Below are positions 35,240-51,842 of a stretch of 64,000 nucleotides of DNA, piece after piece. Made by a program: the position numbers and the translations under genes. Position 1 is the stretch's first letter. Each line of letters begins with the position of its first letter. This stretch comes from an uncultured Thermodesulfobacteriota bacterium (GTDB lineage Bacteria; Desulfobacterota; CAZCTP01). The notes below the pieces were generated by a model that was not told where the DNA came from, searched no databases, and saw only the letters and a program-made list of their open reading frames with translations. Where the stretch lies: assembly GCA_964501575.1 (NCBI GenBank), contig CAZCTP010000003.1, positions 10,384 through 74,383 of the forward strand, read 5' to 3'.

Positions 35240-35296
35240 ATAAAGTTTCAAGGGGAATACCCCTTTGAATCAAATTAATTAAAAAGGAGGTTTGAT

Positions 35297-35710
35297 ATGG
35301 CTAATATGACAAAAGAGGTAATGGATATGTTTAATAATCCAGCTGCTTCAAAAGTATTGGCTACAGTAGATTCAAATGGGAAGGTTCACGCAGTCCCCCA
35401 TGGATCTATAGTAGCTATCGGTCCTGATAGAGTAGCATTTGCAAAACTTGTTAAGGGGAAGACATTGGAGAATCTTGAATCTACTAAAAATGTTTCTGTA
35501 ACAGCCTTTGTTCCATCACAACAACCAGGAGAGTCTATAGGTTATCAGATTAAGGGGATATTTGAAGGACTTCAGAATTCCGGTCCACTATTTGATAACT
35601 ACCAATCAAAGATGCCACCTAATATGAAACTGGCAGGGGTTGGAACAATAAAGGTTGAAGAAGTCTATGAGGTAAGTCCTGGACCAAACTGCGGTAAGAG
35701 GCTTGCCTGA
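35297..35710 (+). CDS. PNPOx-like FMN-binding split-barrel family protein (paralog of 11738..12235)
   Basis: 137 aa; shares the ...VLATVDSNGKVHAVPHGS...VAFAKL...YQIKG pattern with the housekeeping-region paralog. Confidence 0.45.
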   Translation: MANMTKEVMDMFNNPAASKVLATVDSNGKVHAVPHGSIVAIGPDRVAFAKLVKGKTLENLESTKNVSVTAFVPSQQPGESIGYQIKGIFEGLQNSGPLFDNYQSKMPPNMKLAGVGTIKVEEVYEVSPGPNCGKRLA

Positions 35711-35736
35711 AAATTTAATATAAAAGGAGGTGTAAG

Positions 35737-38208
35737 ATGGCAAGAGAAGCAGTAGTGAGGAAGATAGTAACTCCAAGAGAAGTAAAAGGAGAACCTTCAA
35801 CTCCAAGATCAAGGATTGTAAGAGAAAGATATTTGAAGGCAGAACCAAGAGTTGATCCTGAAAGAGCATATCTATATACCAAATCATGGAAAGAGACAGA
35901 AGGAGAGCCTGTTGAGATAAGAAGAGGGAAATCATTTAAGTATGTGATGTCAAATCTAACTCCGGTAATAAGAGAAGGAGAATTGATTGTTGGTAATACA
36001 ACAAGGTATGTTCGTGGTTCATCCCCTTATCCTGAATTTTCAGTAAAATGGATGAAAAATGTGCTGAAGCAGGTACTTGATGAGGATGAGAAGTATGTTG
36101 ATGTCGGAACATATACAAAAGAGGCAAATTTTGGTGTATACAAAATAAGTACAGAAGACCTTAATATGCTCAAGGAATGTATTGAATACTGGGATGGGAG
36201 ATCATTGGACTGTCTTGCAAGAAAGTATATAGGTATGACGGATTGGAAGGATGAATTCGAAGCTGGTGAATCTGCTCAATGGTTTACAAGGCTTGGTTCA
36301 GAAATTCCAGAGGGTAGATTGGTGCTTGATTATGGAAAAGTCTTAAAATTGGGATTTAGGGGTATAATAGATGAGGCTAAAAACTGGATGAAATTACTCG
36401 AGGTAGTTACAATGGATGATTTCAGAAAACTTGCTTTCTATCAGGGAGTTATTAATGCATTAGAAGGAGTAATCCAATTTGCAAAGAACTATGCAAATGA
36501 GGCAAGAAGATTATCAAAGGAGGAGAAAAACAGGGATAGAGAAAAAGAACTTCTTGAGATTGCAGAGAGATGTGAATGGGTATCTGAGAACCCTCCAAGA
36601 GGGTTTAAAGATGCTTTACAGCTATACTGGTTTACAGTTTTATCCGGTCAGATTGAAAGTTTTTCATTCGGATTCTCTCCTGGAAGATTCGATCAATATA
36701 TGTATCCCTTCTATAGAAAAGATATAGACGAAGGTAAGATTACAAATAAGGAGGTCCTTGAACTACTTGAGCTATTAAGAGTTAAGTTTACAGAGATTCA
36801 GAGGGTCTGTTCGAGGTTCTGGGAAGGTCATGGTTCCGGTAATCTCTACCAGAATATGATGCTTGGAGGGATGAAAGCCGATGGCGAGGATGCAAGTAAT
36901 GAATTATCTATTCTTGTTCTTCAGGCAGCTATAAATCAGCAGACAACCCAGCCAACTCTATCGGTTAGATGGAATGATAAACTTAATGAGGAATTCCTGT
37001 TAAAGGCTATAGAACTTGTAAAAACCGGGGTCGGTATGCCAGCATGGTTTAATGATGAAGTGGCAATCCAACATTTCTTGGGCTATACTGGCTGCACATT
37101 AGAGGAGGCAAGAGATTATGCAATGGGTGGATGTACAGAAATGACACTTCCTGGAAAGAGATACGGTATTGTTACACCTGGTTTTGTAAATCAGGCGAAA
37201 TGTCTTGAGCTTGCTCTAAATAATGGTGTAAATCCTATAGATGGGAAGCAGCTTGGGCCGAAAACAGGCAAAATTAATAGCTTTGAAGATCTGCACAGAG
37301 CATTTCTCATACAGATGCAAAGGGCTATTGAGCTTATGTGTAAAGGACATGCAATATTAATGGGAGTTCATAGAGAGCTTGTTCCTCTTATATTCCATTC
37401 AGCAGTTATGGATGACTGCCTTGAAAAGGGTTTAAGCATGGATAATGGGGGAATAAGATATAAGGATTCGCCAACAATACTCTCTGTGGGGATGATAAAT
37501 GTTGCAAACTCTATGGCTGCTATAAAAAAGTGTGTATTTGAAGATAAAACATTCACGTTGAATGAGCTTAAAAAGGCATTGATTTCTAACTTTAAAGGAG
37601 ATGGATACGCAAGTGTTCACAGGAAGCTTCTTGATGCCCCTAAGTTTGGTAATGATGATGATTATGTAGACTTAATAGCAAAGGAGTTATACGAAGAGTT
37701 TGCAGAGGAAGTTTATAAATATAAGAACTATTTTGGTGTTCCTTATACCCCTGGAGCTCTTTCAATAAGCAGTCATCCACACTTTGGCAGGGTATGCGGT
37801 GCAAGCCCTGATGGAAGATTGGCAGGTGTCTCTCTATGCGATGGAGCTGTATCTGCATTTCCAGGAACAGATAAAAATGGACCAACATCCCTTGTTAAAT
37901 CCGCAACCAAGGTTGATTCCATTCCCCATATGGTGGTCCTCTTTAATATGAAATTCCATCCAACAGCTTTAAAGGGAATAGAGGGGTCAAAGAAGCTATT
38001 ATCTCTGATTAAGACATATTTTGATAGGGGTGGATGGCATGTTCAATTCAATGTAGTTGATACAAAGATGCTGAGGGATGCCCAGAGGAATCCTGAAAAA
38101 TACAGGGATCTTATTGTAAGGGTAGCAGGATTCAGTGCCTACTGGGTTGAGTTATCAAAGGCGGTTCAGGACGAGGTAATAGCAAGAACCGAGTATGAGA
38201 CATGTTAA
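35737..38208 (+). CDS. Glycyl radical enzyme GRE1 (PFL superfamily), unknown specificity
   Basis: 823 aa; C-terminal glycyl radical motif [13 protein letters not shown] (Gly codon 38128-38130); catalytic Cys loop MGGCTEM (Cys codon 37132-37134) with Glu two residues after Cys, as in GRE eliminases/decarboxylases. Confidence 0.9.
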   Translation: MAREAVVRKIVTPREVKGEPSTPRSRIVRERYLKAEPRVDPERAYLYTKSWKETEGEPVEIRRGKSFKYVMSNLTPVIREGELIVGNTTRYVRGSSPYPEFSVKWMKNVLKQVLDEDEKYVDVGTYTKEANFGVYKISTEDLNMLKECIEYWDGRSLDCLARKYIGMTDWKDEFEAGESAQWFTRLGSEIPEGRLVLDYGKVLKLGFRGIIDEAKNWMKLLEVVTMDDFRKLAFYQGVINALEGVIQFAKNYANEARRLSKEEKNRDREKELLEIAERCEWVSENPPRGFKDALQLYWFTVLSGQIESFSFGFSPGRFDQYMYPFYRKDIDEGKITNKEVLELLELLRVKFTEIQRVCSRFWEGHGSGNLYQNMMLGGMKADGEDASNELSILVLQAAINQQTTQPTLSVRWNDKLNEEFLLKAIELVKTGVGMPAWFNDEVAIQHFLGYTGCTLEEARDYAMGGCTEMTLPGKRYGIVTPGFVNQAKCLELALNNGVNPIDGKQLGPKTGKINSFEDLHRAFLIQMQRAIELMCKGHAILMGVHRELVPLIFHSAVMDDCLEKGLSMDNGGIRYKDSPTILSVGMINVANSMAAIKKCVFEDKTFTLNELKKALISNFKGDGYASVHRKLLDAPKFGNDDDYVDLIAKELYEEFAEEVYKYKNYFGVPYTPGALSISSHPHFGRVCGASPDGRLAGVSLCDGAVSAFPGTDKNGPTSLVKSATKVDSIPHMVVLFNMKFHPTALKGIEGSKKLLSLIKTYFDRGGWHVQFNVVDTKMLRDAQRNPEKYRDLIVRVAGFSAYWVELSKAVQDEVIARTEYETC

Positions 38209-38318
38209 AAAGAGCGGAAGTCCTGAAGTGCTGAGGAACGGAAGTGCGGAAGCAAAGACTTTAGATTTCTGAGTTTTCGTGCTTCTGTTCTCTTATAAAG
38301 TATAAAGGAGATAAAAAT

Positions 38319-39245
38319 ATGGTTGATAATGGAGAGAGAGCTCTTATATTTAATATTCAGAGATATTCTGTCCATGATGGTCCTGGAATAAGAACTACAG
38401 TATTTATGAAGGGATGCCCATTAAGATGTATATGGTGTCAGAATCCAGAAGGTATAAAGGGAAGGGTAGAGATAGGTTATAGCAAAAGATTGTGTTGTAG
38501 AGACTATCTCTGTTTAAAGGCGTGTCCAAATGGAGCAATAACTCTCTTAAAAAACGGAGAGATAAGGATAAATAGGAATATATGTTATCTATGTGAAAAT
38601 AGAAATTGTTTGTCAGTATGTAATACAAGAGCTATAGAACCGATAGGGAGATACATGACAGTTGATGAATTATTAAAAGAGGTTATGAAAGACAGCCTCT
38701 TTTATAGAAATTCGGATGACGGTGGAGTTACCCTATCCGGTGGTGAATCAACAACACAATGGAGATTTGTATTGGAGTTTTTTAAGAAATGTAAAGAGAG
38801 GGGGGTCCATACTGTTCTTGATACATGTGGATATGTTAAATGGGAAAGACTGTTAAATATATTGGAATATACGGATATAATTCTTTACGATATAAAGCAT
38901 ATGAATAGTAAGGAACATAAAAGACTTACCGGGGTTTCAAATGAACTTATTTTAAAGAATGCAGAGAATATTGCTAAGTTAAAGGATAAAAAGGTTATTA
39001 TAAGATATCCTGTTATCCCCGGGTATAATGATTCTATAGAAAACATAGATGCTTTAGGAGAATTTATGAATAAAATAGGTTTAAAGGAGATATGCCTTTT
39101 ACCCTATCACAGATTGGGCTCAGGTAAATATGAGAAAATAGGAAGGAAATATAGATTAGACCATGTTTTGGCTCCAAGTGAATCACAATTAAAGGGAATA
39201 AAGGATATTTTTGATAGAAGAGGGTTTATCTGTTCTATACAATGA
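38319..39245 (+). CDS. Glycyl radical enzyme activating enzyme (radical SAM, with two-ferredoxin insert)
   Basis: 308 aa; CX3CX2C in GCPLRCIWCQN, then two ferredoxin-like Cys motifs (CCRDYLCLKACP, CYLCENRNCLSVCN) as in BssD/CutD/GD-AE-type activases. Confidence 0.9.
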   Translation: MVDNGERALIFNIQRYSVHDGPGIRTTVFMKGCPLRCIWCQNPEGIKGRVEIGYSKRLCCRDYLCLKACPNGAITLLKNGEIRINRNICYLCENRNCLSVCNTRAIEPIGRYMTVDELLKEVMKDSLFYRNSDDGGVTLSGGESTTQWRFVLEFFKKCKERGVHTVLDTCGYVKWERLLNILEYTDIILYDIKHMNSKEHKRLTGVSNELILKNAENIAKLKDKKVIIRYPVIPGYNDSIENIDALGEFMNKIGLKEICLLPYHRLGSGKYEKIGRKYRLDHVLAPSESQLKGIKDIFDRRGFICSIQ

Positions 39246-39802
39246 ATCTTAAAAGGATTTTAAAACTTGATCCGGATAGAATAAGTTTAGGGACAAATAT
39301 AGCCCTTATAGGAGCAATAAGATTTGCAGTGAAAAATAAAAGTAGTGAAGTATACCCTGAACATATTATATATTCCCTTTTTACCATGGAGGATGCTGTT
39401 CTGCCTTTACTGATATCCAATCTTGGAGGCGATCCAGAAGAGGTTATTAGTAGTATAGAAAAGAGAATTAAAGATATTCAGGATAAAAAAAGAGTAGCTG
39501 ATAGAATTGAGAATGTTAAATTGTCTTTCAAATTAAGAAGGATAATAAATGAGGCTCTTAAGGAATCAGAGATGAGAGGAGAGCTTTTGTGTAATGATCA
39601 TCTTATGGTCGCTCTTTTTAAAGAAAAGGGTGGATTATTTTCGGAGATCCTTTTAAGTAATGGTATTAAGGAGTTTGATGTAAAACCCTTCAATTGTGGA
39701 GGATGTCCCAACGTATGTGAAGATATTATTGAATATATTGTAAACGGTGAGGTAATTGGAAGATATGGTGGGATATGTGGAACATGGAGGTTTAACCTAT
39801 GA
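39242..39802 (+). CDS. Stand-alone Clp N-terminal-domain (double Clp_N repeat) protein with Cys-rich C-terminal tail
   Basis: 186 aa; two Clp_N repeats (PEHIIYSLFTMEDAVLPLLISNLGGDPEEV and NDHLMVALFKEKGGLFSEILLSNGIKEF); tail C-x2-C-x3-C...C. ATGA overlap with the AE gene. Confidence 0.55.
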   Translation: MNLKRILKLDPDRISLGTNIALIGAIRFAVKNKSSEVYPEHIIYSLFTMEDAVLPLLISNLGGDPEEVISSIEKRIKDIQDKKRVADRIENVKLSFKLRRIINEALKESEMRGELLCNDHLMVALFKEKGGLFSEILLSNGIKEFDVKPFNCGGCPNVCEDIIEYIVNGEVIGRYGGICGTWRFNL

Positions 39803-39887
39803 AGAACATAGGCGGGAAGAGTGGAAGCGCGGAAGGACTTTGTAATTGGAAGAAATAGAGAATATGTGGAACATGGAGGTTTAACCT
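39773..39887 (+). repeat. Perfect 26-bp direct repeat (39773-39798 and 39862-39887) bracketing a 63-bp GGAAG-rich segment
   Basis: ATATGTGGAACATGGAGGTTTAACCT occurs twice; copy 1 is the 3' end of the Clp_N gene, copy 2 supplies the RBS of the next small ORF. The bracketed segment resembles the GGAAG-rich element at 38209-38265. Confidence 0.8.
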
Positions 39888-39888
39888 G

Positions 39889-40457
39889 ATGCGAAATATA
39901 ACAATTTTGAAGGAATCTGTAATTATAATGTTATCCATTCTATTTTTTGGATTTACCCCTATTAACAGGAACTATCTTGGAATAGATATTGGCATATCCC
40001 CTGATGAGTTTGTTAAGAGAACAAATGGAAAGGAGGTGACATACAATCTTTTTCATGTAAAGGATGAGAGAACAATCTTTTTCATGTAAAGGATGAGAGA
40101 ATATTCGAAGCTGTGGATTATAAGAAGGGTGTAAATATCCATTCATATTTTTATAAGGGGGTCCTATATAGATTTGATGTGGAATATCCTGCTGACTGTT
40201 TACCCTGTGAATCATTATGGAATAATGAGATCAGAACTTTCTTTAAAGCTTATAATGCCCCAATGATTAATAATGAGGCTATTTCCGTATGGAATGACGG
40301 CAAGACAGAACTTATATTGTTTAAGAAGAGTAAAGTAATAATATTAAGAGATGATAGGGTAGCAGATATAATAGAAATGGAGGAAAATAAAAACCCTCTT
40401 ATCAAGAATATGGAAGAAAAGGCAAGAAATATATTTAAAGATAAAAATAAAGAATAG
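39889..40457 (+). pseudogene. Small membrane-anchored protein gene split by a 29-bp tandem duplication (frameshift)
   Basis: ORFs 39889..40089 and 40113..40457 become one continuous about 180-aa frame if one copy of the 29-bp unit is removed (...LFHVKDER|IFEAVDYKKGVNIH...). Confidence 0.5.
40044..40101 (+). repeat. 29-bp perfect tandem duplication (CAATCTTTTTCATGTAAAGGATGAGAGAA x2)
   Basis: Units at 40044-40072 and 40073-40101 are identical; the duplication introduces a TAA at 40087-40089 in the second copy. Confidence 0.85.
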
Positions 40458-40532
40458 AATGAGAGAATATTTTTACTCTAATGATTTTAAAATTAATTTT
40501 TAATCTAATAATTTTGATTAAGGAGGTGCTTT

Positions 40533-42035
40533 ATGAGATTAATAAAATATAGTGTTATAATTTTAATGATATTTTTATGGGTTAATCCTTCCTATAGTGG
40601 AACAACTTTTACTACAAAAGCAGGGATACTATCTATTGGTGGTTATTTTGAAAATGCGAGTGGTTTAAGGCTTGGGCAGGAGGGTAGAGGCAGATTAACA
40701 ATGTGTAGAACCTCAATTCAGCCTGATATATTCTTTGATACCGGAAAGGGCGTAAGATTCTTTTTAGCTCAAAGACTGGTTAAGGAGACTAAATATACTC
40801 TTGAGGATAAATTGAGAAAGAAAGCAGGATTGCCACCCCTTGAGAGCGATTTTTATGATGAATATGATTCATGGTCTGTAAGAGAGTTATATTTTGATAT
40901 TGATCTTTTGGAAAATTTAAATATAAGGATTGGAAGACAATTGATAACATGGGGTGAGACAGATGTATTTACCCTTTTAGATGTTATTGACCCTCAAGAT
41001 TCAAGCTGGAATCTACCAGGTCTATTCCCTCTTGAAGAAACAAGGCTTCCGTTATCAGGTTTAAGGGCTCTATGGACAATGCCATCAATGGGAATGACGA
41101 CAAACCCTGTATTTGAGTTTGTTTACTTCCCCGGCCTTGATGATTTCAGAGTTAACAAGGGTGCTCCCACAGCAGGAAGATTTCGTCCCCATCCTGAGGA
41201 CAGACCAGGAGCAGCGTTTCCATTTCAGTTTCCTCAGATCCCGCTAAGTGATTGGAGAAGCATTGGAAGGAATGTTGGTGTAAGAACAGTCCTTCCTGAA
41301 AAGCATGGTGATAATGGAAGGGTTGGAGGCAGATTGTATTTCTTTATTGGTAGATGGAATTTCTCTATTGCAGACTATTATACATATAACCTATCTCCTA
41401 ACTTCTATATTGAAAATATAGAAAGGGATGATTTGGGAATTGCAAGGGCTGCCCAGTTTGCTGTTAAATATAAGAGGCAGAATATAGTCGGATTTACCTT
41501 CAATGTTTCTGATGACTATACAAAGGCAACATATAATGGTGAGTTCGCATATTATATAAATAAGCCTTATAATACATATGATCCAAATATTAAAAATGCA
41601 GTTGTTCAGAAGGATACCCTATCCTCTGTGATAAGGATTGAAAGACCAACCTATATTCCACTTCTTCAGCCATATGATCCTACAAGAGAATTTGTTATCT
41701 CATTTCAGTGGTTTCAGGATCTTATTTTGAGTAAGGATGATAATCTCCATTTTCTTATATATAAGACTCCCATTGATAAAGTTACAACAAGGTTGACCCT
41801 TTCTATAGCCACAGGGTATAAGAACGACCAATGGAAACCATCTGTATTCTGGGCGTATGATCCTGATAGGAACAACGGACTGTTTAGAGGGATATTGGAA
41901 TATAATCCCCCCTGGAATGAAAGATATAAGTTGCAGATCCTTTACGAAAACTTCTGGGGTAAGGATTCCTATAACTTCGCTGGTTTCTTCAGAGAAAAGG
42001 ATTCTATATTCTTTAAAATACGGTATCAATTTTAG
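40533..42035 (+). CDS. Secreted/outer-membrane protein, DUF1302-like (putative beta-barrel of hydrophobic-substrate uptake cluster)
   Basis: 500 aa; cleavable signal peptide (MRLIKYSVIILMIFLWVNPSYSG); C-terminal aromatic residue (…KIRYQF); gene order OMP-BNR-RND-DUF1329 matches the known DUF1302/DUF1329 cluster architecture. Family assignment is by context and pattern. Confidence 0.45.
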   Translation: MRLIKYSVIILMIFLWVNPSYSGTTFTTKAGILSIGGYFENASGLRLGQEGRGRLTMCRTSIQPDIFFDTGKGVRFFLAQRLVKETKYTLEDKLRKKAGLPPLESDFYDEYDSWSVRELYFDIDLLENLNIRIGRQLITWGETDVFTLLDVIDPQDSSWNLPGLFPLEETRLPLSGLRALWTMPSMGMTTNPVFEFVYFPGLDDFRVNKGAPTAGRFRPHPEDRPGAAFPFQFPQIPLSDWRSIGRNVGVRTVLPEKHGDNGRVGGRLYFFIGRWNFSIADYYTYNLSPNFYIENIERDDLGIARAAQFAVKYKRQNIVGFTFNVSDDYTKATYNGEFAYYINKPYNTYDPNIKNAVVQKDTLSSVIRIERPTYIPLLQPYDPTREFVISFQWFQDLILSKDDNLHFLIYKTPIDKVTTRLTLSIATGYKNDQWKPSVFWAYDPDRNNGLFRGILEYNPPWNERYKLQILYENFWGKDSYNFAGFFREKDSIFFKIRYQF

Positions 42036-42050
42036 TAAGAAGGATAGAAA

Positions 42051-43067
42051 ATGGAATTTAAGAGAGTATCTATTCTATTAATGATGGTTCTCCTTCTCTT
42101 AATGAATTTCAGGATAGTCCGTGCCTCTGATAGAATTGTAAGATATTATGACAATCTGTATGATGTTGAAATAGTGGGAAAGAATATATGGGCTGTGGGT
42201 TATTATGGAACCATACTTTATTCAAAGGATGGTGGTGAAAACTGGACTATTCAGAAAAGTCCAACAAAGAATCCCTTATTCAGGGTAGAATTTCTCGATG
42301 GATCAAATGGATGGATTGTCGGAAATTATGGGACAATTTTGCATACCTCAGATGGTGGAAGAAGCTGGAATATTCAGAAGAGTGGAACAAATAACCATCT
42401 ATTTGGTATCTCTTTTATAAACCCGGTAAAAGGATGGGTTGTAGGAGAGATGGGAACCATTCTTCATACCGATGATGGTGGTAAGAGCTGGATTGACCAA
42501 TCATTAAAGAATGAAGATATCATTCTAAATAGTATATGCTTTATTGATGAGGAAAATGGATGGATAGGAGGGGAATTCGGGGTTATATATGCTACAAAAG
42601 ATGGAGGCAGGAGCTGGATTAAGCAGAATAGTCCGGTAGAGGTTGGAAGATTTTCAGGGATTAGCCAGGTTATAAATAAGATTTGCTTCAATGATTTAAA
42701 AAGAGGATGGGCTGTAGGTTTAGATGGTGTTATTCTCAAGACAGAGGATGGAGGTAATAGCTGGAGGATTGTTGATAAAAAGGGGATATCCAAGCATGAG
42801 ATGGCAAGGAGTTATCTTTTAGACCTTACAAGTAACAGTGAAGATATATGGGCTGTTGGTTTAAGGGGAGCAATAATCTTCAGCAAGAATGAAGGTAAAG
42901 AATGGCATGTTATGGACTTAGGATACAGATTCCATCTAAATGGTATAGATATGAATAAAAAAGGACTTGGAATTATAGTTGGAGATAAAGGGTTTATTCT
43001 TAGAACCTTAGACGGTGGGAAAAGCTGGGATGTTATAAAACTTGAGGGAAGAGGAGAGAGAAAATGA
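42051..43067 (+). CDS. BNR/Ycf48-like beta-propeller repeat protein, secreted
   Basis: 338 aa; signal peptide; six to seven repeats of the DGG(K/R)SW BNR/Asp-box motif. Confidence 0.65.
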   Translation: MEFKRVSILLMMVLLLLMNFRIVRASDRIVRYYDNLYDVEIVGKNIWAVGYYGTILYSKDGGENWTIQKSPTKNPLFRVEFLDGSNGWIVGNYGTILHTSDGGRSWNIQKSGTNNHLFGISFINPVKGWVVGEMGTILHTDDGGKSWIDQSLKNEDIILNSICFIDEENGWIGGEFGVIYATKDGGRSWIKQNSPVEVGRFSGISQVINKICFNDLKRGWAVGLDGVILKTEDGGNSWRIVDKKGISKHEMARSYLLDLTSNSEDIWAVGLRGAIIFSKNEGKEWHVMDLGYRFHLNGIDMNKKGLGIIVGDKGFILRTLDGGKSWDVIKLEGRGERK

Positions 43068-45370
43068 AAATATTAGCCACTTTTATTATAAAATATCGCT
43101 TGCCAATCCTGACTGTAATAGTTCTAATTACCCTATTCTTTGCTTATCAAATACTCCATATAGAGATGTATACGGTCTTTGAAGACCTTCTTCCTTCAAA
43201 TCATCCATATATAAAGATGCATAGAGAGTTTAAGGATATATTTGGAGGGGCAAACCTTGTTCTTATATCAATTGAGGTAAAAAAAGGGAATATATTTAAT
43301 TACGATATCCTCTATAAGGTTAAGAAGATGACAGAGGCTGTTGAGATGTGCCATGGGGTGAATAACTATTTAATATACTCCATTGCAAGGCAGAAGGTTA
43401 AGGATATGAAGGCAACATCATGGGGGATTGAGATACAGCCTGTAATGTTTCCGAATCCACCGAAAACCAAGGAAGGTATGGAAGAACTTAAGAATGTTAT
43501 ATACTCCAATGATACAATATTTGGTAAGCTTGTTTCCCTTGACAGCAAGGCTGCTTTAATAACAGCCTCATTTATGGAGAAGAGGCTCGACTATAAATAT
43601 ATATTTGACCATATAATGAGGGCAGCGGATTCACTAAAAGATGAGAATACAATAATTAATGTTGCTGGTGAACCCATATTATATGGATGGATGTATTATC
43701 ATCTAAGGGAAATATCTGTAATATTTATTATTACCATCTCTACTATAGTTCTTCTACTAATCCTTTACTTTAGAAATATACCTGGTGTTATTATACCCAT
43801 GCTTTCTCTTATAGTTACAGCTATATGGGGTGTAGGATTTAATGGCGTTATGGGGTATAACTTTGATCCATTAATCCTTGTAGTTCCATTCCTTATATCT
43901 GCAAGGACAGTCAGTCACTCTGTTCAGATGACTTCTCGATTCTTTGAAGAATATGTTAGATCGGGTGATAGAAAAGAATCAGCGAGGATATCCATTGAAG
44001 GTTTACTGATCCCTGGATTAACATCCATAATAACAGATGCATTTGGTATTCTTGTTATTATTATTGCTCCCATACCAATCCTGGTGAGATTGGGTGTTGT
44101 TGGAACATTCTGGATAATAACGAATATTGTGAGTGTTCTTATATTAGCTCCTATCATATTTACATATATTCCGGTTCCTAAAAAGATAAGAGAGGAAAAG
44201 AGTGAAGATCTCCTTGGGAGAACCCTGTATAGAGCTGGAAAGGGATGCTTTGGGTTTCCACGATTTGGTATAGTAGGAGCAGCTATAATCATTGTTATAT
44301 GGTCTTCATGGAATGTAAGATATCTGACAATAGGGGATTCTCGCCCCGGTTCCCCTTTATTATGGCCAGATGCTCCTTTTAATCTCAGCACAAAGCATAT
44401 AAATGATAAGTTTCCAGGAACAAACCAGTTGATAATATTTGTAAAAGGGAAACATGAAAATACAATAAAATCTCCTGCTTTATTGTACAAGATGGAGGAA
44501 TTTGAAAGGTATTTAAGGAGATATTCAAAGGTTGGTGGAACAGAGTCTATAATAAATCTTGGTAAGAGGGCATATATGGTATTTCATAACGATGATCCAA
44601 GATGGAGATTCCTGTGTAAATCCAGGAATGATATGGGCAATATCTTCTATTTAGCCCAGGAAGGAACAGAGCCTGGGGACTTAGATAAATGGGTAAATTA
44701 TAACTGGCAGCATGGAACTATTATAGCCTATTTAAAGGACCATAAGGGAGATACTATAAGGGAGATTATAGGTAGAGCAAAGAGATTCATTGATAAAAAT
44801 CCAGTTAAAGATGCAGAATGGAAGCTTGCTGGTGGTCTTATAGGTATAGTCGCTGCAGGGAACGAAGTTATTGCAAAAGCCCATGAGTGGAATCTATTCC
44901 TTATACTATTTATAACCTTCCTATGCTGTGCAATAGGCTATAGGTCTATTATTGGTGGTATACTATTTATAGTATCTACATCAATAGCCAATTTTACCAC
45001 CTTGGCTATAATGGCATATTATAACCTTGGTTTAAATGTTAATACAATCCCTGTTGTGACATTAGGTATAGGATTGGGGGTTGATTATGGTCTCTATGTT
45101 GTAAGCAGAATAAAGGAGGAATATGAAATATCTAAGGATTTGAAGATCGCTATTCCCCTGGCTATATCCACTGCTGGTAAGGCTGTTCTATTTACAGCAT
45201 TAACAATAACAGCAGGTATTATATTCTGGTGGTTTTCACCCCTTAGGTTCCAGGCTGAGATGGGGGGGCTTTTGACAATAGTACTTCTCTTTAATATGCT
45301 CGGGGGTATGTTTCTACTTCCGGCACTTATATATATTATAAAACCAAAATTTGTTATTGGAAGGGGGTGA
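43064..45370 (+). CDS. RND-superfamily exporter (MMPL/'predicted exporter of the RND superfamily' type)
   Basis: 768 aa; two 6-TM bundles each preceded by a large extracytoplasmic loop; sterol-sensing-domain-like TM region. Confidence 0.75.
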   Translation: MKILATFIIKYRLPILTVIVLITLFFAYQILHIEMYTVFEDLLPSNHPYIKMHREFKDIFGGANLVLISIEVKKGNIFNYDILYKVKKMTEAVEMCHGVNNYLIYSIARQKVKDMKATSWGIEIQPVMFPNPPKTKEGMEELKNVIYSNDTIFGKLVSLDSKAALITASFMEKRLDYKYIFDHIMRAADSLKDENTIINVAGEPILYGWMYYHLREISVIFIITISTIVLLLILYFRNIPGVIIPMLSLIVTAIWGVGFNGVMGYNFDPLILVVPFLISARTVSHSVQMTSRFFEEYVRSGDRKESARISIEGLLIPGLTSIITDAFGILVIIIAPIPILVRLGVVGTFWIITNIVSVLILAPIIFTYIPVPKKIREEKSEDLLGRTLYRAGKGCFGFPRFGIVGAAIIIVIWSSWNVRYLTIGDSRPGSPLLWPDAPFNLSTKHINDKFPGTNQLIIFVKGKHENTIKSPALLYKMEEFERYLRRYSKVGGTESIINLGKRAYMVFHNDDPRWRFLCKSRNDMGNIFYLAQEGTEPGDLDKWVNYNWQHGTIIAYLKDHKGDTIREIIGRAKRFIDKNPVKDAEWKLAGGLIGIVAAGNEVIAKAHEWNLFLILFITFLCCAIGYRSIIGGILFIVSTSIANFTTLAIMAYYNLGLNVNTIPVVTLGIGLGVDYGLYVVSRIKEEYEISKDLKIAIPLAISTAGKAVLFTALTITAGIIFWWFSPLRFQAEMGGLLTIVLLFNMLGGMFLLPALIYIIKPKFVIGRG

Positions 45371-45459
45371 GGGAAGTCAATTAAGAATTATGAATTAGGA
45401 ATTATGAATTATGAGTTATTATTAAGCAGGAAGTAAAAAATATAAAGAAGGAGGTTTAT

Positions 45460-46716
45460 ATGAAAAAATCAAAATATTTCGTTATTCCTTTTATAATTTT
45501 ATCCTTTATTTTTCTTCTTAATACGAGAAGGGGCTTTGCGGATGTTAAGCCAGGGGATGTTATAGGTCCAAATAACTGGGAGAAAGTTAAAGACCTATTT
45601 TTACCATGGATGTTAGGGCAGATAAAAAAAGGCTGGACAATAAAGATAAGAAAGACAGAGCCTATTCTCCCCACATTTTCAAAGGGATACTTAGAGGCAA
45701 CCCGGAAGTATGCAGGGCAGGCAAAGATAGGGCTCAATGATGGGTTGCTTAACTATAAAGGTGGCCTTCCATTTCCGAAGATAGACCCCGATGACCCTCA
45801 AGCTGGAATAAAGATTATGTATAACTTCTACTGGAGATGGACAGGAGATGATAAGGTTCTCGCTGTTGATAAAACCGGAAAGAGAATAGTACCCTGGAGG
45901 AGATGGGTTATTGATAGGCACGGAAATGAGATAACTGCAGATACATATGGATATTTTTTGAAAGCGAGTGCAAGAACAGATATACCTCCAATATCTGCTT
46001 TTAAAGGAAAGGAGCATATAGAGAGTTATAGTATGTGGATAAATGTATGGCCAAGGGATTCATCGGGAACGGTTGTCTTTTATTACAGATATTATGATCC
46101 TAAAAAATGGGATGACCAGTGGATATTTATACCGAGTATAAGAAGAGTAAGAAGATGGCCAACATCTCAGAGATGTTCAACAAAAGCTCCAACAGACTAT
46201 ATATGGGATGATAACTGGGGATGGGATTCAAAGGTAAGCCTTTTTAAATATAAACTTCTTGGTGAAAAGAAGATGTTAACCATATTTCATGGAAAGCATA
46301 TTCCATATAAGAAGAAGAAAGGTTCTCCATGGTTGCTGGATGAAGAGTTTGAAGTAAGGGACTGTTATGTTGTTGAGATAACTGCAAAGGATCCAAACTA
46401 CTGCTATAGAAGACAGGTATACTATGTAGACAAAGAGAGTTTTCATGGAGTTGCAAAGGAGGTGTATGACAGGAAAAATGAATACTGGAAAGAGATGTTA
46501 ATGTTTGGAACCAATTATGAATATCCTGATGGAAGGAAATTCTGGGGGATTTTAGGATCTATATTTGTAAATGTTCAGACAGAACATATAAATATAAACT
46601 GCCCTTCTGAATCTGGGGCTACAATATATTATAATATAGGACTTACTCCAAAGTTCTTTACCCTATCTCAGATGCAGCAATTTCAGAGAGGGATGGGTTA
46701 TGTGAAGATTAAGTGA
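45460..46716 (+). CDS. Secreted protein, DUF1329-like (partner of DUF1302-like protein)
   Basis: 418 aa; signal peptide MKKSKYFVIPFIILSFIFLLNTRRGFADV; paralog at 61160..62233. Confidence 0.45.
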   Translation: MKKSKYFVIPFIILSFIFLLNTRRGFADVKPGDVIGPNNWEKVKDLFLPWMLGQIKKGWTIKIRKTEPILPTFSKGYLEATRKYAGQAKIGLNDGLLNYKGGLPFPKIDPDDPQAGIKIMYNFYWRWTGDDKVLAVDKTGKRIVPWRRWVIDRHGNEITADTYGYFLKASARTDIPPISAFKGKEHIESYSMWINVWPRDSSGTVVFYYRYYDPKKWDDQWIFIPSIRRVRRWPTSQRCSTKAPTDYIWDDNWGWDSKVSLFKYKLLGEKKMLTIFHGKHIPYKKKKGSPWLLDEEFEVRDCYVVEITAKDPNYCYRRQVYYVDKESFHGVAKEVYDRKNEYWKEMLMFGTNYEYPDGRKFWGILGSIFVNVQTEHININCPSESGATIYYNIGLTPKFFTLSQMQQFQRGMGYVKIK

Positions 46717-46742
46717 GAGAAGGTTTAAAGTAGAGGATAAAG

Positions 46743-47525
46743 GTGAGGCTCAAGGATAGGGTAGCAATAGTAACAGGTGGCGGGACTGGTATTGGTAAAG
46801 CTATTGCTCTTGGCTTTGCAAGGGAGGGAGCAGATGTTGTAATTGCCCAGAGGAGGATGGAACTGGCAGAAAAAACAGCAGAGGAGATAAAAGTTATAGG
46901 CAGAAGAGCAATTGCTATTAAGACTGACATCTCTATAATTAGAGATGTCAATAACTTGGTTGATAGGACTATAGAGAATTTTGGTAAGATAGACATCCTC
47001 GTAAACAATGCATCTCTATTTCCTGGGGGTTCATTTTTAGAAATATCAGAAGAGGAACTGGATAGAGTGTTTTCAGTAAATCTTAAGGGGACATTTCTTT
47101 TAACCCAGAGAGTCGCTAAGGAGATGACCAGTAGAAGGAAGGGGAAGATAATAAATATATCTTCGGGCCGTTCCATTGTTGGGATACCCGGGCTTACCCA
47201 TTATACTGTTACAAAAGGAGGGATTAATGCATTTACGAGGGGACTGGCTGCAGAACTCGGTCCCTATGGAATAAATGTAAATGCTATTGTTTGTGGGTTT
47301 GTACCTGATACGGACGGGGTTAATGCTCTGTTTTCCTCTCTGGGTGAAGGGCTCTCCAGAAAGATCCTTGAAACTCAGATATTACAAACAGCCTTGAAAA
47401 GGTTCGGAAAGCCAGATGATTTTGTGGGTATTGCTGTCTATTTAGCAAGCGATGAAAGTAATTTTATAACGGCAGAGTGTATAACCGTGGATGGAGGCTT
47501 AGCTTATACTCGGATGAGATGGTAG
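46743..47525 (+). CDS. Short-chain dehydrogenase/reductase (FabG-like)
   Basis: 260 aa; TGGGTGIGKAIA Rossmann motif, NNAS, catalytic YTVTK (YxxxK). Confidence 0.85.
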   Translation: MRLKDRVAIVTGGGTGIGKAIALGFAREGADVVIAQRRMELAEKTAEEIKVIGRRAIAIKTDISIIRDVNNLVDRTIENFGKIDILVNNASLFPGGSFLEISEEELDRVFSVNLKGTFLLTQRVAKEMTSRRKGKIINISSGRSIVGIPGLTHYTVTKGGINAFTRGLAAELGPYGINVNAIVCGFVPDTDGVNALFSSLGEGLSRKILETQILQTALKRFGKPDDFVGIAVYLASDESNFITAECITVDGGLAYTRMRW

Positions 47526-47609
47526 ATATAAGGAATAAATGGAAGGGTTTTTTTGTTTGTAGGAAAGAGTATTAACTTAACTCTTAAACCTTTAATATAA
47601 GGAGGTAAA

Positions 47610-47998
47610 ATGGCAAGAGAAGCAGTAATAAAGGAAATAATAGCTCCAAGGGAGGTTCAGGGTGAGCCTTCAACTGAAAGATCAAGACTTGTAAGGGAGA
47701 GATATCTAAAGGCAGAGCTTGAAGTAGATCCTGAAAGGGCGGATCTCTATACAAAATCATGTAAGGAAACATAGGGAGAGCCTCTTGAAATAAGGAGAGG
47801 TAAGGCATTCAAATATATTATAGGTGGCATATACAGTTCAATGTAGTTGATACAAAGATGCTGAGGGATGCACAGAGGAATCCTGATAAATACAGGGGTC
47901 TTATTGTAAGGGTTGCAGGATTCAGTGCCTACTGGGTTGAGCTTTCTAAAGCAGTGCAGGATGAAGTTATAGCAAGAACTGAGTATGAGACATGCTAA
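47610..47998 (+). pseudogene. Glycyl radical enzyme remnant: GRE1-type N-terminus (about 70 aa) fused to C-terminal glycyl-radical motif segment, with an in-frame stop and about 700 codons deleted
   Basis: Begins with the same SD + ATGGCAAGAGAAGCAGTA as GRE1 (MAREAVIKEIIAPREVQGEPSTERSRLVRERYLKAE...), TAG at 47772-47774, then at about 47840 jumps to sequence about 90% identical to the last about 160 nt of GRE1 ([55 protein letters not shown]), out of frame. Confidence 0.75.
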
Positions 47999-48053
47999 AG
48001 AGGCAATAGGTAAGAGGTGATAGGTAAGAAATTATGAGATGAGGAAATAAAGA

Positions 48054-50345
48054 ATGAAAAGATACTCTGTGATTGGTAAAAGTTTGCCTATGGTGGATAG
48101 TATACCAAAGGTTACCGGGGAGGCTAAATATTCTATCGATATATTTTTACCAGGGATGCTACATGGGAAGATTCTAAGGAGTCCCTGTCCCCACGCAAGA
48201 ATTCTTAATATAGATGTCAGTGAGGCTAATAAACTTTCTGGGGTGAAGGCTATAATAACCGGTAGAGAAACCCTGGGAATAAAACGTAGCTTCTTTTCTA
48301 ACCCACCCCAGTATGATGATGAGTTTCCATTAGCTATAGATAGGGTCAGATATATTGGTGATCCATTGGCTGCAGTGGCTGCAGTAAATGAATATATAGC
48401 TGAAGAGGCATTAGAGCTTATTAAAGTAGAATATGAGGTATTACCTGCTTTCTTTTCTCCTGAGGAGGCTATGGAAGAGGGGGCTCCAATGATTCATGAG
48501 CATGTTAAGAATAATATAGCCCACCAACTCCATCTTGATTTTGGTGATATAGATAATGGTTTTAGTCAATCTGATTATATCCGTGAGGATAGATTCATTT
48601 CCAATCCCCTTCATCAGGGTTTTCTTGAACCTCATATCTCTGTAGCATCCTATGATTCTATGGGTGAATTGACTATCTGGACCTCTACTCAAATACCATT
48701 TTCCCTTAGAAGTGAATTATCTAAAACACTGGGAGTGAAAGAAGGGATGATAAGGGTAATTAAACCCTATGTGGGTGGGGCTCATTGTAGCAAATTAGAG
48801 TTACTTGCCCACCATTTCTGTTCGGCTCTCCTTTCAAAGAAGACAGGGAAGCCAGTAAAGATAGAGTTGACAAGGGAAGAAGTTTTTCAAATCAATAGAG
48901 GATCCCATCCTGTTACTATTGATCTAAAAACAGGGGTTAAGAAGGATGGAACTCTGATGGCTCAATATGCTAAGCTTATCGCTGATGCTGGAGCATATTT
49001 AAGCGCTGGATTGCTTCTAAATATCCTTTCAGGCCTTTTTATCTCCCTGCCTTATAAAATAGATAACTTTCGCTATGATGGATACATTGTATATACAAAT
49101 AACCCTGTCTGTGCAACTCAAAGAGCAATGGGATTGATTCAGATGCGCTTTGCAATTGATTCTCAACTGGATATAATTGCCAGGAACTTAGGAATAGACA
49201 TTAAAGATTTAATGATCAAGAATGCTGTTACCAGTGGGTATACTACTATAACTAAAAATAAGATATCAAGCTGTGGTCTTATAGAATGTATACAAAAAAC
49301 TGAAGAAAGTTCTTACTGGAGGGAAAGGCATAGTAAATTATTAAATAATAATAGAGGACTGGGAATAGGATGCGGATTCTGTACCTCAGGGGTAAAGGGG
49401 ACCAAGGTAACAGGGGATACCTGGGCTAAGTTAAAGATAGATTCAGATGGCATAGTTACTCTATTTACAGGGGCTTCAGATCTCGGCCAGGGAAGCAATA
49501 CTATTTTATCCCAGATAGTCGCTGAGGAACTGGGTATAGATTTAAAAAATATAAAAATAATCTCTGCAGACACAAAGATTACTCCAACAACTCCTGGAAG
49601 CTTTGGAAGCAGGGTTACCTTCCAGGTAGGAAATGCTGTAAAGCTGGCTGCTGCCGATGCAAAAAGGATTCTTCTAAGAACCGCTGCTAAAAAATTAAAG
49701 GTAAAATATGAATTCTTAGATATCAAAGATAATCGTATCTTTGTTAAGAATTTTCCAGATAGAGCCATATCTTTTTTAGATGCTGTTCGGGTATCTCTCG
49801 AATACCAACAGAGAAGAGATTCTATAATAGGCGAAGGATATTATACCCCTCCTGGTGAAATGCCGGATCCAGACACCTATGAGGGGAATATCGCTTCAGC
49901 CTTTAGCTTTGGGACAACAATAGCTGAAGTGGAGGCTGATCCTGAAACAGGAAGAGTTAATGTATTAAAAATAACTCATTCCCATGACTGCGGTTTTCCG
50001 ATAAATCCTATGGCAGTTGAAGGTCAGATTGAAGGTCAGGTAGCTTTTGGATTGGGACAGGCTTTATATGAAGAGCGTATTTTAGAAAATGGATTAATGG
50101 TCAATCCTTCTTTCTTGGGATATAAGATCCCTATAGCTTCAGAAATGCCGAGTGTAAATTCTATATTAATAGAAACCCATGATCCTAACGGGCCTTTTGG
50201 AGCTAAAGAATGCGGTGAGGGACCTCAAACTTCTGTAGTTCCAGCTATAGCCAATGCTATCTATAATGCAATCGGTATAAGGATTAAAGATTTACCCATA
50301 ACCCCTGAAAAGATATTGAAGGGATTGGAAGAAAAAAGCCTGTGA
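48054..50345 (+). CDS. Xanthine dehydrogenase/aldehyde oxidase-family molybdopterin-binding large subunit (CoxL/HcrA-like), no adjacent FeS or FAD subunit genes
   Basis: 763 aa; N-terminal a/b-hammerhead domain (SVIGKSLPMVDSIPKVTGEAKYSID...), MoCo-binding domains. Confidence 0.8.
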   Translation: MKRYSVIGKSLPMVDSIPKVTGEAKYSIDIFLPGMLHGKILRSPCPHARILNIDVSEANKLSGVKAIITGRETLGIKRSFFSNPPQYDDEFPLAIDRVRYIGDPLAAVAAVNEYIAEEALELIKVEYEVLPAFFSPEEAMEEGAPMIHEHVKNNIAHQLHLDFGDIDNGFSQSDYIREDRFISNPLHQGFLEPHISVASYDSMGELTIWTSTQIPFSLRSELSKTLGVKEGMIRVIKPYVGGAHCSKLELLAHHFCSALLSKKTGKPVKIELTREEVFQINRGSHPVTIDLKTGVKKDGTLMAQYAKLIADAGAYLSAGLLLNILSGLFISLPYKIDNFRYDGYIVYTNNPVCATQRAMGLIQMRFAIDSQLDIIARNLGIDIKDLMIKNAVTSGYTTITKNKISSCGLIECIQKTEESSYWRERHSKLLNNNRGLGIGCGFCTSGVKGTKVTGDTWAKLKIDSDGIVTLFTGASDLGQGSNTILSQIVAEELGIDLKNIKIISADTKITPTTPGSFGSRVTFQVGNAVKLAAADAKRILLRTAAKKLKVKYEFLDIKDNRIFVKNFPDRAISFLDAVRVSLEYQQRRDSIIGEGYYTPPGEMPDPDTYEGNIASAFSFGTTIAEVEADPETGRVNVLKITHSHDCGFPINPMAVEGQIEGQVAFGLGQALYEERILENGLMVNPSFLGYKIPIASEMPSVNSILIETHDPNGPFGAKECGEGPQTSVVPAIANAIYNAIGIRIKDLPITPEKILKGLEEKSL

Positions 50346-50375: not shown

Positions 50376-51842
50376 ATGGCAAGAGATATGTTTGATGAGG
50401 AGTATGATGTAGTTATAATCGGTGCAGGTATGGGAGGACTTACCTGTGGAGCAGCTCTTGCTAAAAAAGGAAAGAGAGTAAAGATATTTGAACAGCACAT
50501 TCTTCCAGGAGGATATGCCTCTTCCTTTGTTAGAAAGGGCTTTAAATTTGATGTCGCTATTCATTATGTAATCGGTTTGGGTAATGGGGGACAGGTATAT
50601 AAAATATTATCAGAAATTGGGCTTAGTGACGGATTAGATTCCATTAAATTTGATAATCTTTACAGATGCTTTTTCCCGGGAGAATCTTTTATTGTCCCCA
50701 GTAATTTGGAAGATTATTTAAATTTTCTCTCTCAAAGATTTCCAGAGGAAAAGATAGGAATAAAAACCCTTTTTGGTACAATGGGACTCATCTATGAAGA
50801 TAGTAAGAACCTTCCATCACTGACCTCTTTATTAACCCGATATAAAGATAAGACGCAAAAGGAATTATTAGATGAGTTTATAAAGGATGGTAAGCTTAAG
50901 AGTATAGTTTCTTCACTATTTTATGGGGGCTTGCCACCATCTAAGATATCAGCTATTCAGAGATCCTGCTCAATAATGGGAGCCTTTTCAAATGGGGCAT
51001 TTTATCCAGTAGGAGGTTCACAAGCATTAGTCAATATCTTGGTAAATGGATTAAAAAGAGCTGGAGGAGAATTAGAATTGGGTAGATTAGTGAATAGAAT
51101 TATTGTAAAGAATGGAAGGGCTATTGGAATTGAAACATCAGATGGTAAGAGAATAAAAGCTAATTGGATTGTATCTAATTCAGATATTATGGAAACCTTT
51201 TTTAAGTTAATCGGGGGAAAAGAGTTAGAAGGGATAAATCCTGCATTTCTAAAAGGCTTAAGGGAAATGCAGCCATCTTTATCCTCTTTTGATGTATACC
51301 TTGGAGTGGACTTGGATATAAAATCCATTGGTATCACTGACCATGAGATTATAGTGCATGAAAGCTGGAATATAGAGGAGGAATTTAAAGAATTATTAGA
51401 GGATGGTTTCTCGGGGGTTCCCTATTCTATAACAATACCAACACTTTCTGATCCTTCACTTGCTCCTGTGAATCATCATATAGTAATTATCTTTACACCA
51501 GCGCCTTATCATTTAAAAGGAGGGGATTGGAAGGCTGATAAAGAGAGGATTACGAATGAAATGATATTAAAGGCAGAGTCTGTTATACCTGGATTATCCA
51601 AGCATATAGTAGTAAAAGACTCCGCTACCCCTTTGACAAAGGAAAGGTATACATTAAATTTTAGGGGGTCTATTGGAGGTTGGGCTAATTATCCAAACAT
51701 AATATTTAATAAGCCATTACCCAAGACCCCGGTTGAGAATCTTTATCTTACCGGTCATTGGACACTTCCTGGAGGTGGAATTTCAGGGGTAATCTCTTCT
51801 GGATGGGCAGTTGCTAATATGATAGGGGAAAATAGCTTTTAG
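50376..51842 (+). CDS. FAD-dependent oxidoreductase, phytoene-desaturase (CrtI/COG1233) family
   Basis: 488 aa; N-terminal DVVIIGAGMGGLTCGAALAKKGKRVKIFEQHILPGGYA dinucleotide-binding motif characteristic of the CrtI-like amine-oxidase fold. Confidence 0.7.
   Translation: MARDMFDEEYDVVIIGAGMGGLTCGAALAKKGKRVKIFEQHILPGGYASSFVRKGFKFDVAIHYVIGLGNGGQVYKILSEIGLSDGLDSIKFDNLYRCFFPGESFIVPSNLEDYLNFLSQRFPEEKIGIKTLFGTMGLIYEDSKNLPSLTSLLTRYKDKTQKELLDEFIKDGKLKSIVSSLFYGGLPPSKISAIQRSCSIMGAFSNGAFYPVGGSQALVNILVNGLKRAGGELELGRLVNRIIVKNGRAIGIETSDGKRIKANWIVSNSDIMETFFKLIGGKELEGINPAFLKGLREMQPSLSSFDVYLGVDLDIKSIGITDHEIIVHESWNIEEEFKELLEDGFSGVPYSITIPTLSDPSLAPVNHHIVIIFTPAPYHLKGGDWKADKERITNEMILKAESVIPGLSKHIVVKDSATPLTKERYTLNFRGSIGGWANYPNIIFNKPLPKTPVENLYLTGHWTLPGGGISGVISSGWAVANMIGENSF

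Follow-up and report, generated by a model that had tools for sequence, protein, structure and literature searches.

The DNA examined here, referred to below as the window, is a 64,000-nucleotide stretch of contig CAZCTP010000003.1 (positions 10,384 to 74,383 of the forward strand) from an uncultured Thermodesulfobacteriota bacterium. It contains four consecutive genes that, judged by the families of their products, form a cassette belonging to the already described AmeABCD or "Nanopod" type of envelope system. We label these genes after their AmeABCD counterparts: A (DUF1302-family barrel), C (Ycf48-like propeller), D (RND-superfamily pump), and B (DUF1329/LolA-like protein). They run in the order A-C-D-B, with 15 nucleotides between A and C, a 4-nucleotide overlap of C and D, and 89 nucleotides between D and B; a Shine-Dalgarno-like sequence precedes all four starts. 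A preliminary description of this DNA had placed four open reading frames at 40533-46716 and assigned them to the families DUF1302, BNR/Ycf48, RND/MMPL, and DUF1329. The open reading frame list gives exactly these limits and this order, and all four proteins exceed the curated Pfam cut-offs for the families named, including DUF1302 and DUF1329, the two on which the assignment had been said to depend. Pfam matches, and likewise matches to NCBIfam equivalog models, were judged against curated cut-offs throughout.

Protein A matched the Pfam DUF1302 model with 56.5 bits (cut-off 23.2; E 3.3e-15), and the match covers just two thirds of the model (profile positions 160-541 only). Its N terminus resembles a signal peptide ending in ...SYS, without a lipobox, and its C terminus (...FFKIRYQF) is aromatic, as in the beta-signal of outer-membrane proteins. 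An AlphaFold2 model built with 14 homologs was almost wholly beta, with a predicted local distance difference test score (pLDDT) of 66 and a predicted template modelling score (pTM) of 0.61. In Foldseek, this model matched OmpU/OmpF-type porins of 16-18 strands, OccAB1, and AlgE, all at probability 1.0 and with template modelling scores of 0.5-0.58 on target length. The prediction fits the literature, in which DUF1302 is an 18-strand barrel similar to Occ and AlgE whose structure is unsolved (PMC13499233). A channel of the FadL/TodX type was considered and set aside: A had no match to the Toluene_X Pfam family, and neither FadL nor TodX was among the best 50 Foldseek matches listed. Channels of that type are 14-strand barrels with an N-terminal hatch and belong to the Toluene_X family.

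The motif GxQxxxWGETDVF...D..P.D...P...LEETR is invariant across the 14 homologs of A. The strongest conserved block (residues 134-171, window positions 40932-41045) lies outside the modelled barrel wall, and residues 139-171 were modelled at pLDDT below 50; from the model, this block may be an inward-folded loop or a docking surface for the DUF1329 partner. Relatives of A were few at high similarity: a word-indexed search found 20, the nearest 47% identical and the named ones from Syntrophales, whereas a HMMER profile search against 1.84 billion cluster representatives returned 2210 at E<=1e-3, of which 110 reached E<=1e-30; full-length clusters scoring more than 490 bits numbered about six. 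By these counts, the superfamily is large, and the divergent subfamily to which A belongs is small.

Protein B carries a type-I signal peptide without a lipobox and matched both Pfam DUF1329 (143.4 bits, cut-off 23.1; E 1.4e-41) and LolA_like (63.4 bits, cut-off 30; E 2.7e-17). Its AlphaFold2 model (pLDDT 89.6, pTM 0.88) matched in the C-terminal ~240 residues LolA3 from Porphyromonas gingivalis (9tp6; template modelling score 0.86), 3bk5 (0.84), and the DUF1329 protein from Desulfovibrio piger (4z48; 0.82). Like B, LolA3 and 4z48 have a 13-strand open beta-sheet with a hydrophobic groove; they are proteins of ~240 amino acids, whereas B has an extra N-terminal region of ~130-170 amino acids. 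Membership of B in the Lol lipoprotein pathway was rejected, as its Pfam match is LolA_like (PF17131)/DUF1329 rather than LolA, and true LolA proteins reached template modelling scores of only 0.41-0.56 against the model. LolA3 itself does not pair with LolB (PMC13103446).

That the DUF1302 and DUF1329 proteins work as partners is suggested by an AlphaFold-Multimer complex of a Pseudomonas pair (interface pTM 0.84; PMC13499233). What such a pair does has also been read differently. In P. putida, growth on butyl stearate or Tween 20 depends on these genes, the defect of PP_0765/PP_0766 mutants being specific to these two substrates, and the pair was speculated to be an outer-membrane esterase or some other enzyme (Thompson et al., 10.1101/2020.07.04.188060). 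For the pair in the window, modelling gave a porin-like barrel for A and a LolA-type lipid-carrier fold for B, neither of them a hydrolase fold, Pfam and NCBIfam gave no hydrolase matches, and the published pair is cofit with an RND pump; we rejected an enzymatic role on fold grounds and give it hardly any probability.

Protein C matched the Pfam PSII_BNR/Ycf48 model with 157.6 bits in five stretches (cut-off 27; E 5.8e-46) and the Protein Data Bank entry of Ycf48, 2xbg, in sequence (E 2.1e-22); its N terminus is signal-peptide-like and without a lipobox. Protein D matched Pfam MMPL (85.4 bits, cut-off 20.5; E 4.5e-24) and has about 12 hydrophobic spans in a 1+5/1+5 layout with two large periplasmic loops. 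The best NCBIfam model was TIGR00921 (HAE3), with a score of 122 bits that stays below the cut-off of 352. Among 12 homologs of D, D268 in transmembrane segment 4 and D674-Y675 within the motif GxGxDYGxY of segment 10 are invariant; the Asp-Tyr pair is confined to segment 10, while segment 4 carries the invariant D268-P269. The segment 10 motif aligns with the ...GIAIDYGLF... segment of MmpL3, known as the Asp-Tyr pair of its proton relay, and D is therefore likely to be a proton-driven pump.

D shares with HpnN, MmpL3, and BstA a monomer-type RND build of 12 transmembrane segments and two periplasmic domains, the segment 10 Asp-Tyr motif, and a hydrophobic cargo (predicted in the case of D); these transporters need no dedicated barrel, LolA-like protein, or propeller. 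D does not belong to the HpnN/MmpL3 family of lipid exporters: it scored far under the equivalog cut-offs (HpnN 66.8 versus 752, MmpL3 44.8 versus 1400, BstA 26.8 versus 1400), and the Asp-Tyr relay is missing from segment 4. The weak similarity nevertheless bears on a broader idea, namely that the pump exports an endogenous lipid or envelope component, in the manner of HpnN, to harden the cell against solvents, and that the catabolic context reflects mere co-regulation. Price et al. observed pleiotropic phenotypes for such genes and proposed export of a cell-wall or envelope component (10.1101/072470), in Delftia, outer-membrane vesicles and nanopods contain DUF1302 and DUF1329 proteins (PMC3110197), and the LolA-superfamily fold of B would fit as well. 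Yet the cassettes of the window and its close relatives lie within variable catabolic clusters rather than near lipid-synthesis genes, a locus or genome can hold several paralogous sets, and, as stated, the HpnN and BstA scores fall far short. We consider such a role in envelope biogenesis quite unlikely.

Four genes can also stand side by side without a joint function, and the frequency with which A-B pairs occur without C and D nearby (see below) is the only observation that speaks for this. Comparison of related loci contradicts it. Close relatives, defined as loci with a barrel 39-47% identical to A, all have the four genes wherever the locus is sufficiently long, although in shuffled orders (C-D-UbiD-A-B-B, A-C-D-B, C-D-A-B, and D-B-A followed by a glycyl-radical enzyme [GRE] gene). 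Across distant lineages the four genes come together in at least six arrangements, C and D overlap by 4 nucleotides in the window, and the DUF1302, DUF1329, BNR, and RND genes are cofit in Shewanella, Kangiella, and Pseudomonas even where the pairs are split (10.1101/072470). Chance adjacency was therefore rejected on conservation, and its probability is negligible. Since the cassette stays intact while its order shuffles, and since it does so beside UbiD arrays or another GRE gene, comparative genomics favors a functional unit that is linked to the anaerobic catabolism of aromatics or terpenoids.

The cassette nearest to that of the window was found in two loci (L003 and L004), where it is flanked by seven consecutive UbiD-family paralogs; L004 was recovered from the sample that also yielded the window, has a similar guanine-plus-cytosine (GC) content (37.6%), and may be a second cassette of the genome to which the window belongs or of a sister genome. 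In a Zixibacteria contig, an orphan B gene stands next to two UbiD and two Amidohydro_2 genes. The canonical order A-B-C-D, reported as conserved in the AmeD lineage, is not kept in the window; the order A-C-D-B recurs in L005, L067, L069, L082, L086, and L087, and because order varies across the wider family it does not disqualify the cassette from Ame-type membership, for which four of five defining features at the sequence level were found. The fifth is placement of the pump in the HAE3/AmeD lineage, for which the best model, TIGR00921, scored D below its cut-off.

To describe more distant homologs of A, we counted neighbors in 50 genome loci whose flanks reach 6 kb or more on either side. 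B adjoins A in 34 of the 50, and 7 have both C and D no more than 9 kb away; loci that include C and D mostly show the order A-C-D...B, like that of the window. One metagenome-assembled genome (MAG), PL23a_bin.76, has at least ten A or A-B loci, some of them beside CrtI-like FAD enzyme and SDR genes. These counts suggest that A-B is the core pair that multiplies, and that the C-D pair is sometimes linked to it. The window itself has a second such pair, A2 and B2 (Table 1), whose genes overlap by 11 nucleotides. A2 is 22% identical to A over 393 amino acids (E 2e-10), with the GxQxxxWG..D and C-terminal Y-x-F features in common, and B2 is 24% identical to B over 155 amino acids; A2 is probably an extra outer-membrane partner without a pump of its own.

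Table 1. Genes of the window discussed in the text, followed by related loci in other genomes (aa, amino acids; gene orders use the letters of the four-gene cassette)
Feature	Position	Strand	Size	Remarks
Sigma-54 activator with PAS domain	27353-29329	+		
PsrABC-like molybdopterin oxidoreductase set	29846-33962	+		
"Variant" radical-SAM protein	33959-35239	+		NF045502
GRE1, glycyl-radical enzyme	35737-38208	+		
GRE1 activase	38319-39245	+		
Clp_N-domain protein	39242-39802	+	186 aa	Cys-rich C-terminal tail
A, predicted DUF1302-family outer-membrane beta-barrel	40533-42035	+	500 aa	AmeA-like; divergent short subfamily
C, predicted periplasmic Ycf48-like BNR beta-propeller	42051-43067	+	338 aa	AmeC-like
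D, predicted RND-superfamily inner-membrane pump	43064-45370	+	768 aa	MMPL/HAE3-like; AmeD-like
B, predicted periplasmic DUF1329/LolA-like protein	45460-46716	+	418 aa	AmeB-like
SDR	46743-47525	+		
4-Hydroxybenzoyl-CoA-reductase-alpha-like molybdenum enzyme	48054-50345	+		767 bits, under the cut-off of 995
CrtI-family flavoenzyme	50376-51842	+		
GRE2, glycyl-radical enzyme	51884-54385	+		
Second CrtI/CrtO-like flavoenzyme	54476-56029	+		
UbiD	56034-57461	+		Nearest to phenylphosphate carboxylase alpha
Third CrtO/CrtI-like gene, split	58119-59168 and 59240-59731	+		CrtO profile positions 3-351, then 391-538
A2, second, more divergent DUF1302-like barrel	59728-61149	+	473 aa	Pfam DUF1302, 29.8 bits (cut-off 23.2), E 4.2e-7
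B2, second LolA_like/DUF1329-like protein	61139-62233	+	364 aa	Pfam LolA_like E 5.9e-22, DUF1329 E 6.9e-6
Paralogous "variant radical SAM" gene	62217-63512	+		NF045502
L003	8263-21590			GntR-C-D-UbiD-A-B-B, then five to six further UbiD genes
L004	4282-17609			GntR-C-D-UbiD-A-B-B, then five to six further UbiD genes
L005				UbiD-A-C-D-B-UbiD-UbiD-B
L007				A-B, then B-A-D-C on the opposite strand, plus another B
L012				D-B-A, then a HypD/PFL2-like glycyl-radical enzyme; tar-biofilm MAG
L013				Three UbiD genes and a universal stress protein before A
L090				Canonical A-B-C-D; 32/41/44/53% identical to A/B/C/D; adjoins Amidohydro_2 and LigB genes
L014, L016, L017, L020, L021, L025, L027, L030, L048, L079				Loci of PL23a_bin.76

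Every open reading frame of at least 150 amino acids with a protein-family match between 27353 and 63512 is on the plus strand, and the cassette is located between the two GRE genes. The best curated model for both GRE1 and GRE2 was indoleacetate decarboxylase (870 and 750 bits, under the cut-off of 1100), and the best solved structure was glycerol dehydratase. Similarity was lowest to benzyl- and alkylsuccinate synthases, which makes fumarate addition by these enzymes unlikely. The preliminary description had taken the adjacency of GRE1 and its activase as support for a hydrophobic substrate. The idea is reasonable, although adjacency is circumstantial, and it is strengthened by the CrtI/COG1233-like flavoenzymes, UbiD, and the 4-hydroxybenzoyl-CoA-reductase-like enzyme of the window, and by the UbiD arrays of related loci. 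The literature on monoterpenes (PMC6394551, PMC4109377), phenanthrene, steroids, p-cresol, and benzene (PMC13101534) confirms that clusters of this kind either form part of catabolic islands or respond to hydrophobic substrates by induction; for phenanthrene, p-cresol, and steroids, Price et al. named clusters with members of these families (10.1101/072470). Considering the UbiD, molybdenum, arylacetate-decarboxylase-like GRE, and COG1233 flavoenzyme genes of the window, and the UbiD, Amidohydro_2, and LigB genes that adjoin related cassettes, the cargo is probably aromatic/phenolic or terpenoid.

In our preferred interpretation, which we consider probable, the four genes encode one AmeABCD/"Nanopod"-type envelope-spanning system for hydrophobic small molecules, linked to neighboring catabolism. 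The cassette would be co-expressed with the surrounding anaerobic catabolic genes (for the two GREs and the CrtI-like, UbiD, and molybdenum enzymes). D, aided by C, would collect the compound in the periplasm or at the outer leaflet of the inner membrane and load it into the hydrophobic groove of B, the soluble LolA-like protein, which would then dock on barrel A, so that the compound could cross the lipopolysaccharide barrier. Net outward flow would keep a toxic aromatic or terpenoid substrate, or a GRE product, tolerable in the membrane, and A-B, together with the extra A2-B2, may double as a passive passage for entry through the outer membrane. The physical complex, its cargo, the order of hand-over, and the direction in this scheme are what we infer; the families, folds, signal peptides, Asp-Tyr relay motif, and co-conservation of the four genes are features of the sequences and models described above.

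The direction of transport deserves separate consideration, since the preliminary description had called the cassette an uptake module. RND pumps are outward transporters: HpnN, MmpL3, and AcrB all move their cargo outward, and we know of no RND transporter that drives import. D, with its conserved proton-relay motif, looks like one of these pumps. In the sole deletion study of such a cassette, that of ameABCD in Castellaniella defragrans 65Phen, where the genes lie in a monoterpene island and are induced by alpha-phellandrene, deletion lowered monoterpene tolerance and biomass yield and raised the accumulation of Nile Red, and the authors proposed efflux and a new HAE3 sub-lineage (PMC6394551). 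As noted above, Price et al. likewise thought of export. With characterized RND pumps all working outward and the one deletion study showing efflux, the uptake label finds no support, and by analogy net outward transport is the most likely direction, a view that we hold with moderate confidence.

On the one hand, uptake, with A and B carrying a poorly soluble substrate inward and the RND pump and propeller joining in its delivery, is a serious rival and a real possibility. The cassette lies amid catabolic genes, the second pair A2-B2 has no pump, and some genomes have many paralogous A-B pairs beside catabolic genes. DUF1329 mutants show reduced growth on phenanthrene (PMC13101534), an ameB transposon mutant grew more poorly on limonene (PMC4109377), the P. 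putida mutants are less fit on fatty esters, and the authors who described the "Nanopod" cluster of Ca. Anaerobenzenivorax ORM2a, whose products rank with the most abundant protein sets while benzene is degraded methanogenically, suggested benzene transport across the envelope (PMC13101534). On the other hand, import driven by an RND transporter is not known, dye accumulation rose in the Ame deletion, small hydrophobic molecules need no energized step once they are past the lipopolysaccharide barrier, and lost tolerance explains growth defects on toxic substrates equally well.

A more specific form of uptake can be drawn from the same genes: the cassette and A2-B2 would be the dedicated entry route of an undescribed anaerobic pathway rather than a tolerance pump, with each DUF1302/DUF1329 pair acting as a substrate-specific, SusCD-like gate in the outer membrane and all pairs coupled to one shared RND engine. 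In that pathway, arylacetate-decarboxylase-like GREs, UbiD (de)carboxylases, and CrtI-like flavoenzymes would attack a hydrophobic aromatic or isoprenoid substrate. We think both the entry route and this pathway unlikely; if they are real, a new catabolic regulon would be marked, among uncultured Thermodesulfobacteriota, by the recurrent linkage of the barrel subfamily to UbiD arrays.

Our preferred interpretation, an envelope-spanning system with outward flow, has several points to answer that weigh against it. The barrel model is of moderate confidence (pLDDT 66), and the HAE3 score of D stays below its curated cut-off. Most A-B pairs in the 50 loci have no C-D pair nearby, and ten or more A-B loci by catabolic genes, as in PL23a_bin.76, form a pattern commoner for substrate-specific uptake than for efflux. 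A defect in uptake or in the envelope could explain why the P. putida mutants fail on Tween 20 and butyl stearate. The direction is argued from the behavior of the RND family and from one distant betaproteobacterial system, and the interpretation as a whole from the genes of an uncultured organism. A search with the sigma-54 consensus found no site directly upstream of 40533, and scans for sigma-70 promoters and terminators over 35000-48200 gave chance-level results, with no promoter directly 5' of the cassette and no usable operon boundaries.

Several features around the cassette are worth recording. The 730-nucleotide spacer 5' of it contains gaacatggaggtttaacct at the end of the Clp_N gene, with a second copy about 80 nucleotides downstream, and ctttttcatgtaaaggatgagagaa, present twice near 40049-40100 (repeat region 39780-40100); open reading frames of 66 and 114 amino acids in this spacer had no family match. 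The Clp_N gene shares 4 nucleotides with the 3' end of the GRE activase gene and encodes an unusual partner for a glycyl-radical system. Directly upstream of GRE1 lies a gene for 137 amino acids (about 35297-35710) with a weak PNPOx_N match; a PNPOx-like protein, LssP, and a LolA-like protein, LssQ, are encoded in the limonenylsuccinate synthase operon of a Syntrophobacteraceae MAG (PMC12583861). Positions 47605-48002 hold the remnant of a third GRE gene. It consists of two overlapping duplicates of parts of GRE1, one of the 5' end (77% identity with 35732-35948) and one of the 3' end (68% identity with 37939-38212). The remnant is represented by called open reading frames of 54 and 46 amino acids, the latter with a Gly_radical Pfam match, and is either a decayed GRE duplicate or a GrcA-like spare glycyl-radical domain.

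Further out, the two NF045502 radical-SAM genes, 73-79% identical in DNA, flank the whole GRE and transport cluster, and the split of the third CrtO/CrtI-like gene may be a frameshift, a pseudogene, or an assembly error. A sigma-54-type promoter-like site with one mismatch, TGGCATGATAATTGCA, lies at 29518-29533 between the activator gene and the PsrA-like gene. Sites of this type are not above chance over the whole window (20 versus 14.6 expected), and this one looks like the only meaningful candidate among them. Positions 25243-27248 encode a radical-SAM/HHH protein followed by a protein with a Cas6 endoribonuclease domain match, and Rfam and tRNA scans of the window found nothing. The window has the same sequence as a contig of a JGI metagenome and a Logan assembly, and its GC content is ~35%. 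Its valyl-tRNA synthetase reached a best identity of 62-63% within a collection of 5.8 billion proteins, the named neighbors being MAGs of Deltaproteobacteria, Thermodesulfobacteriota, or Desulfobacterales; because of these identities and neighbors, we place the host in a deep, uncultured lineage, apparently a diderm of the Thermodesulfobacteriota type.

The combination of DUF1302, DUF1329, Ycf48-like, and HAE3 proteins is among the more widespread four-gene units in diderm bacteria. The locus described here adds a case from a strictly anaerobic, uncultured lineage that is attached directly to glycyl-radical chemistry. Viewed with related loci, it shows that the unit stays intact while its order shuffles, that extra barrel/LolA-like pairs accumulate around a single pump, and that this barrel subfamily travels with UbiD-type (de)carboxylases. 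It helps to frame how anaerobes handle toxic and poorly soluble substrates, such as benzene, phenolics, and terpenes.

The architecture is that of published DUF1302/DUF1329/BNR/RND clusters, as the preliminary description had recognized, and the same four families are found in three groups of known systems. The first comprises the loci of Shewanella amazonensis (Sama_1588-1591), Kangiella, and Pseudomonas (PP_0765/6 and PP_2018/9), in which these families act as one unit. In Pseudomonas the A-B and C-D pairs are split yet cofit, which resembles the A-B core seen among relatives of the window cassette (34 of 50 loci). The loci of this group are housekeeping-like, belong to aerobes, show pleiotropic phenotypes, and are accompanied by LuxR-type regulators; the copy in the window, unlike them, sits in a specialized anaerobic cluster downstream of a sigma-54 activator.

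The second is the cluster of ORM2a, which comes from the same phylum (Desulfobacterota) and from an anaerobic hydrocarbon degrader. It encodes porin-like, DUF1329, YCF48-related, and MMPL proteins, and we compared it by description rather than by sequence. Its barrel is so divergent that it was annotated merely as hypothetical. The order there is A-B-...-C-D, with genes for a universal stress protein and a hypothetical protein inserted, and the cluster forms a separate island away from the activation genes.

The third, AmeABCD, has the same four families (DUF1302, DUF1329/LolA-like, COG4447 Ycf48-like, and RND, the last being HAE3-type in AmeABCD) and likewise lies in an anaerobic catabolic island with COG1233 flavoenzymes: its island encodes CtmAB, a phytoene-dehydrogenase-like limonene dehydrogenase of COG1233 (PMC4109377), and the window has three such genes. 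This likeness, too, was drawn by families and description rather than by sequence alignment. The order is A-B-C-D there versus A-C-D-B in the window, AmeA has 605 amino acids versus 500 for A (about 100 fewer), and the host is a denitrifying betaproteobacterium, whereas that of the window belongs to a Thermodesulfobacteriota lineage of the obligate-anaerobe type. Unlike AmeABCD, the window cassette has GREs as neighbors. What the window would add to the known systems is its host lineage, a divergent and short barrel subfamily, direct attachment to GREs, and a recurrent linkage to UbiD arrays.

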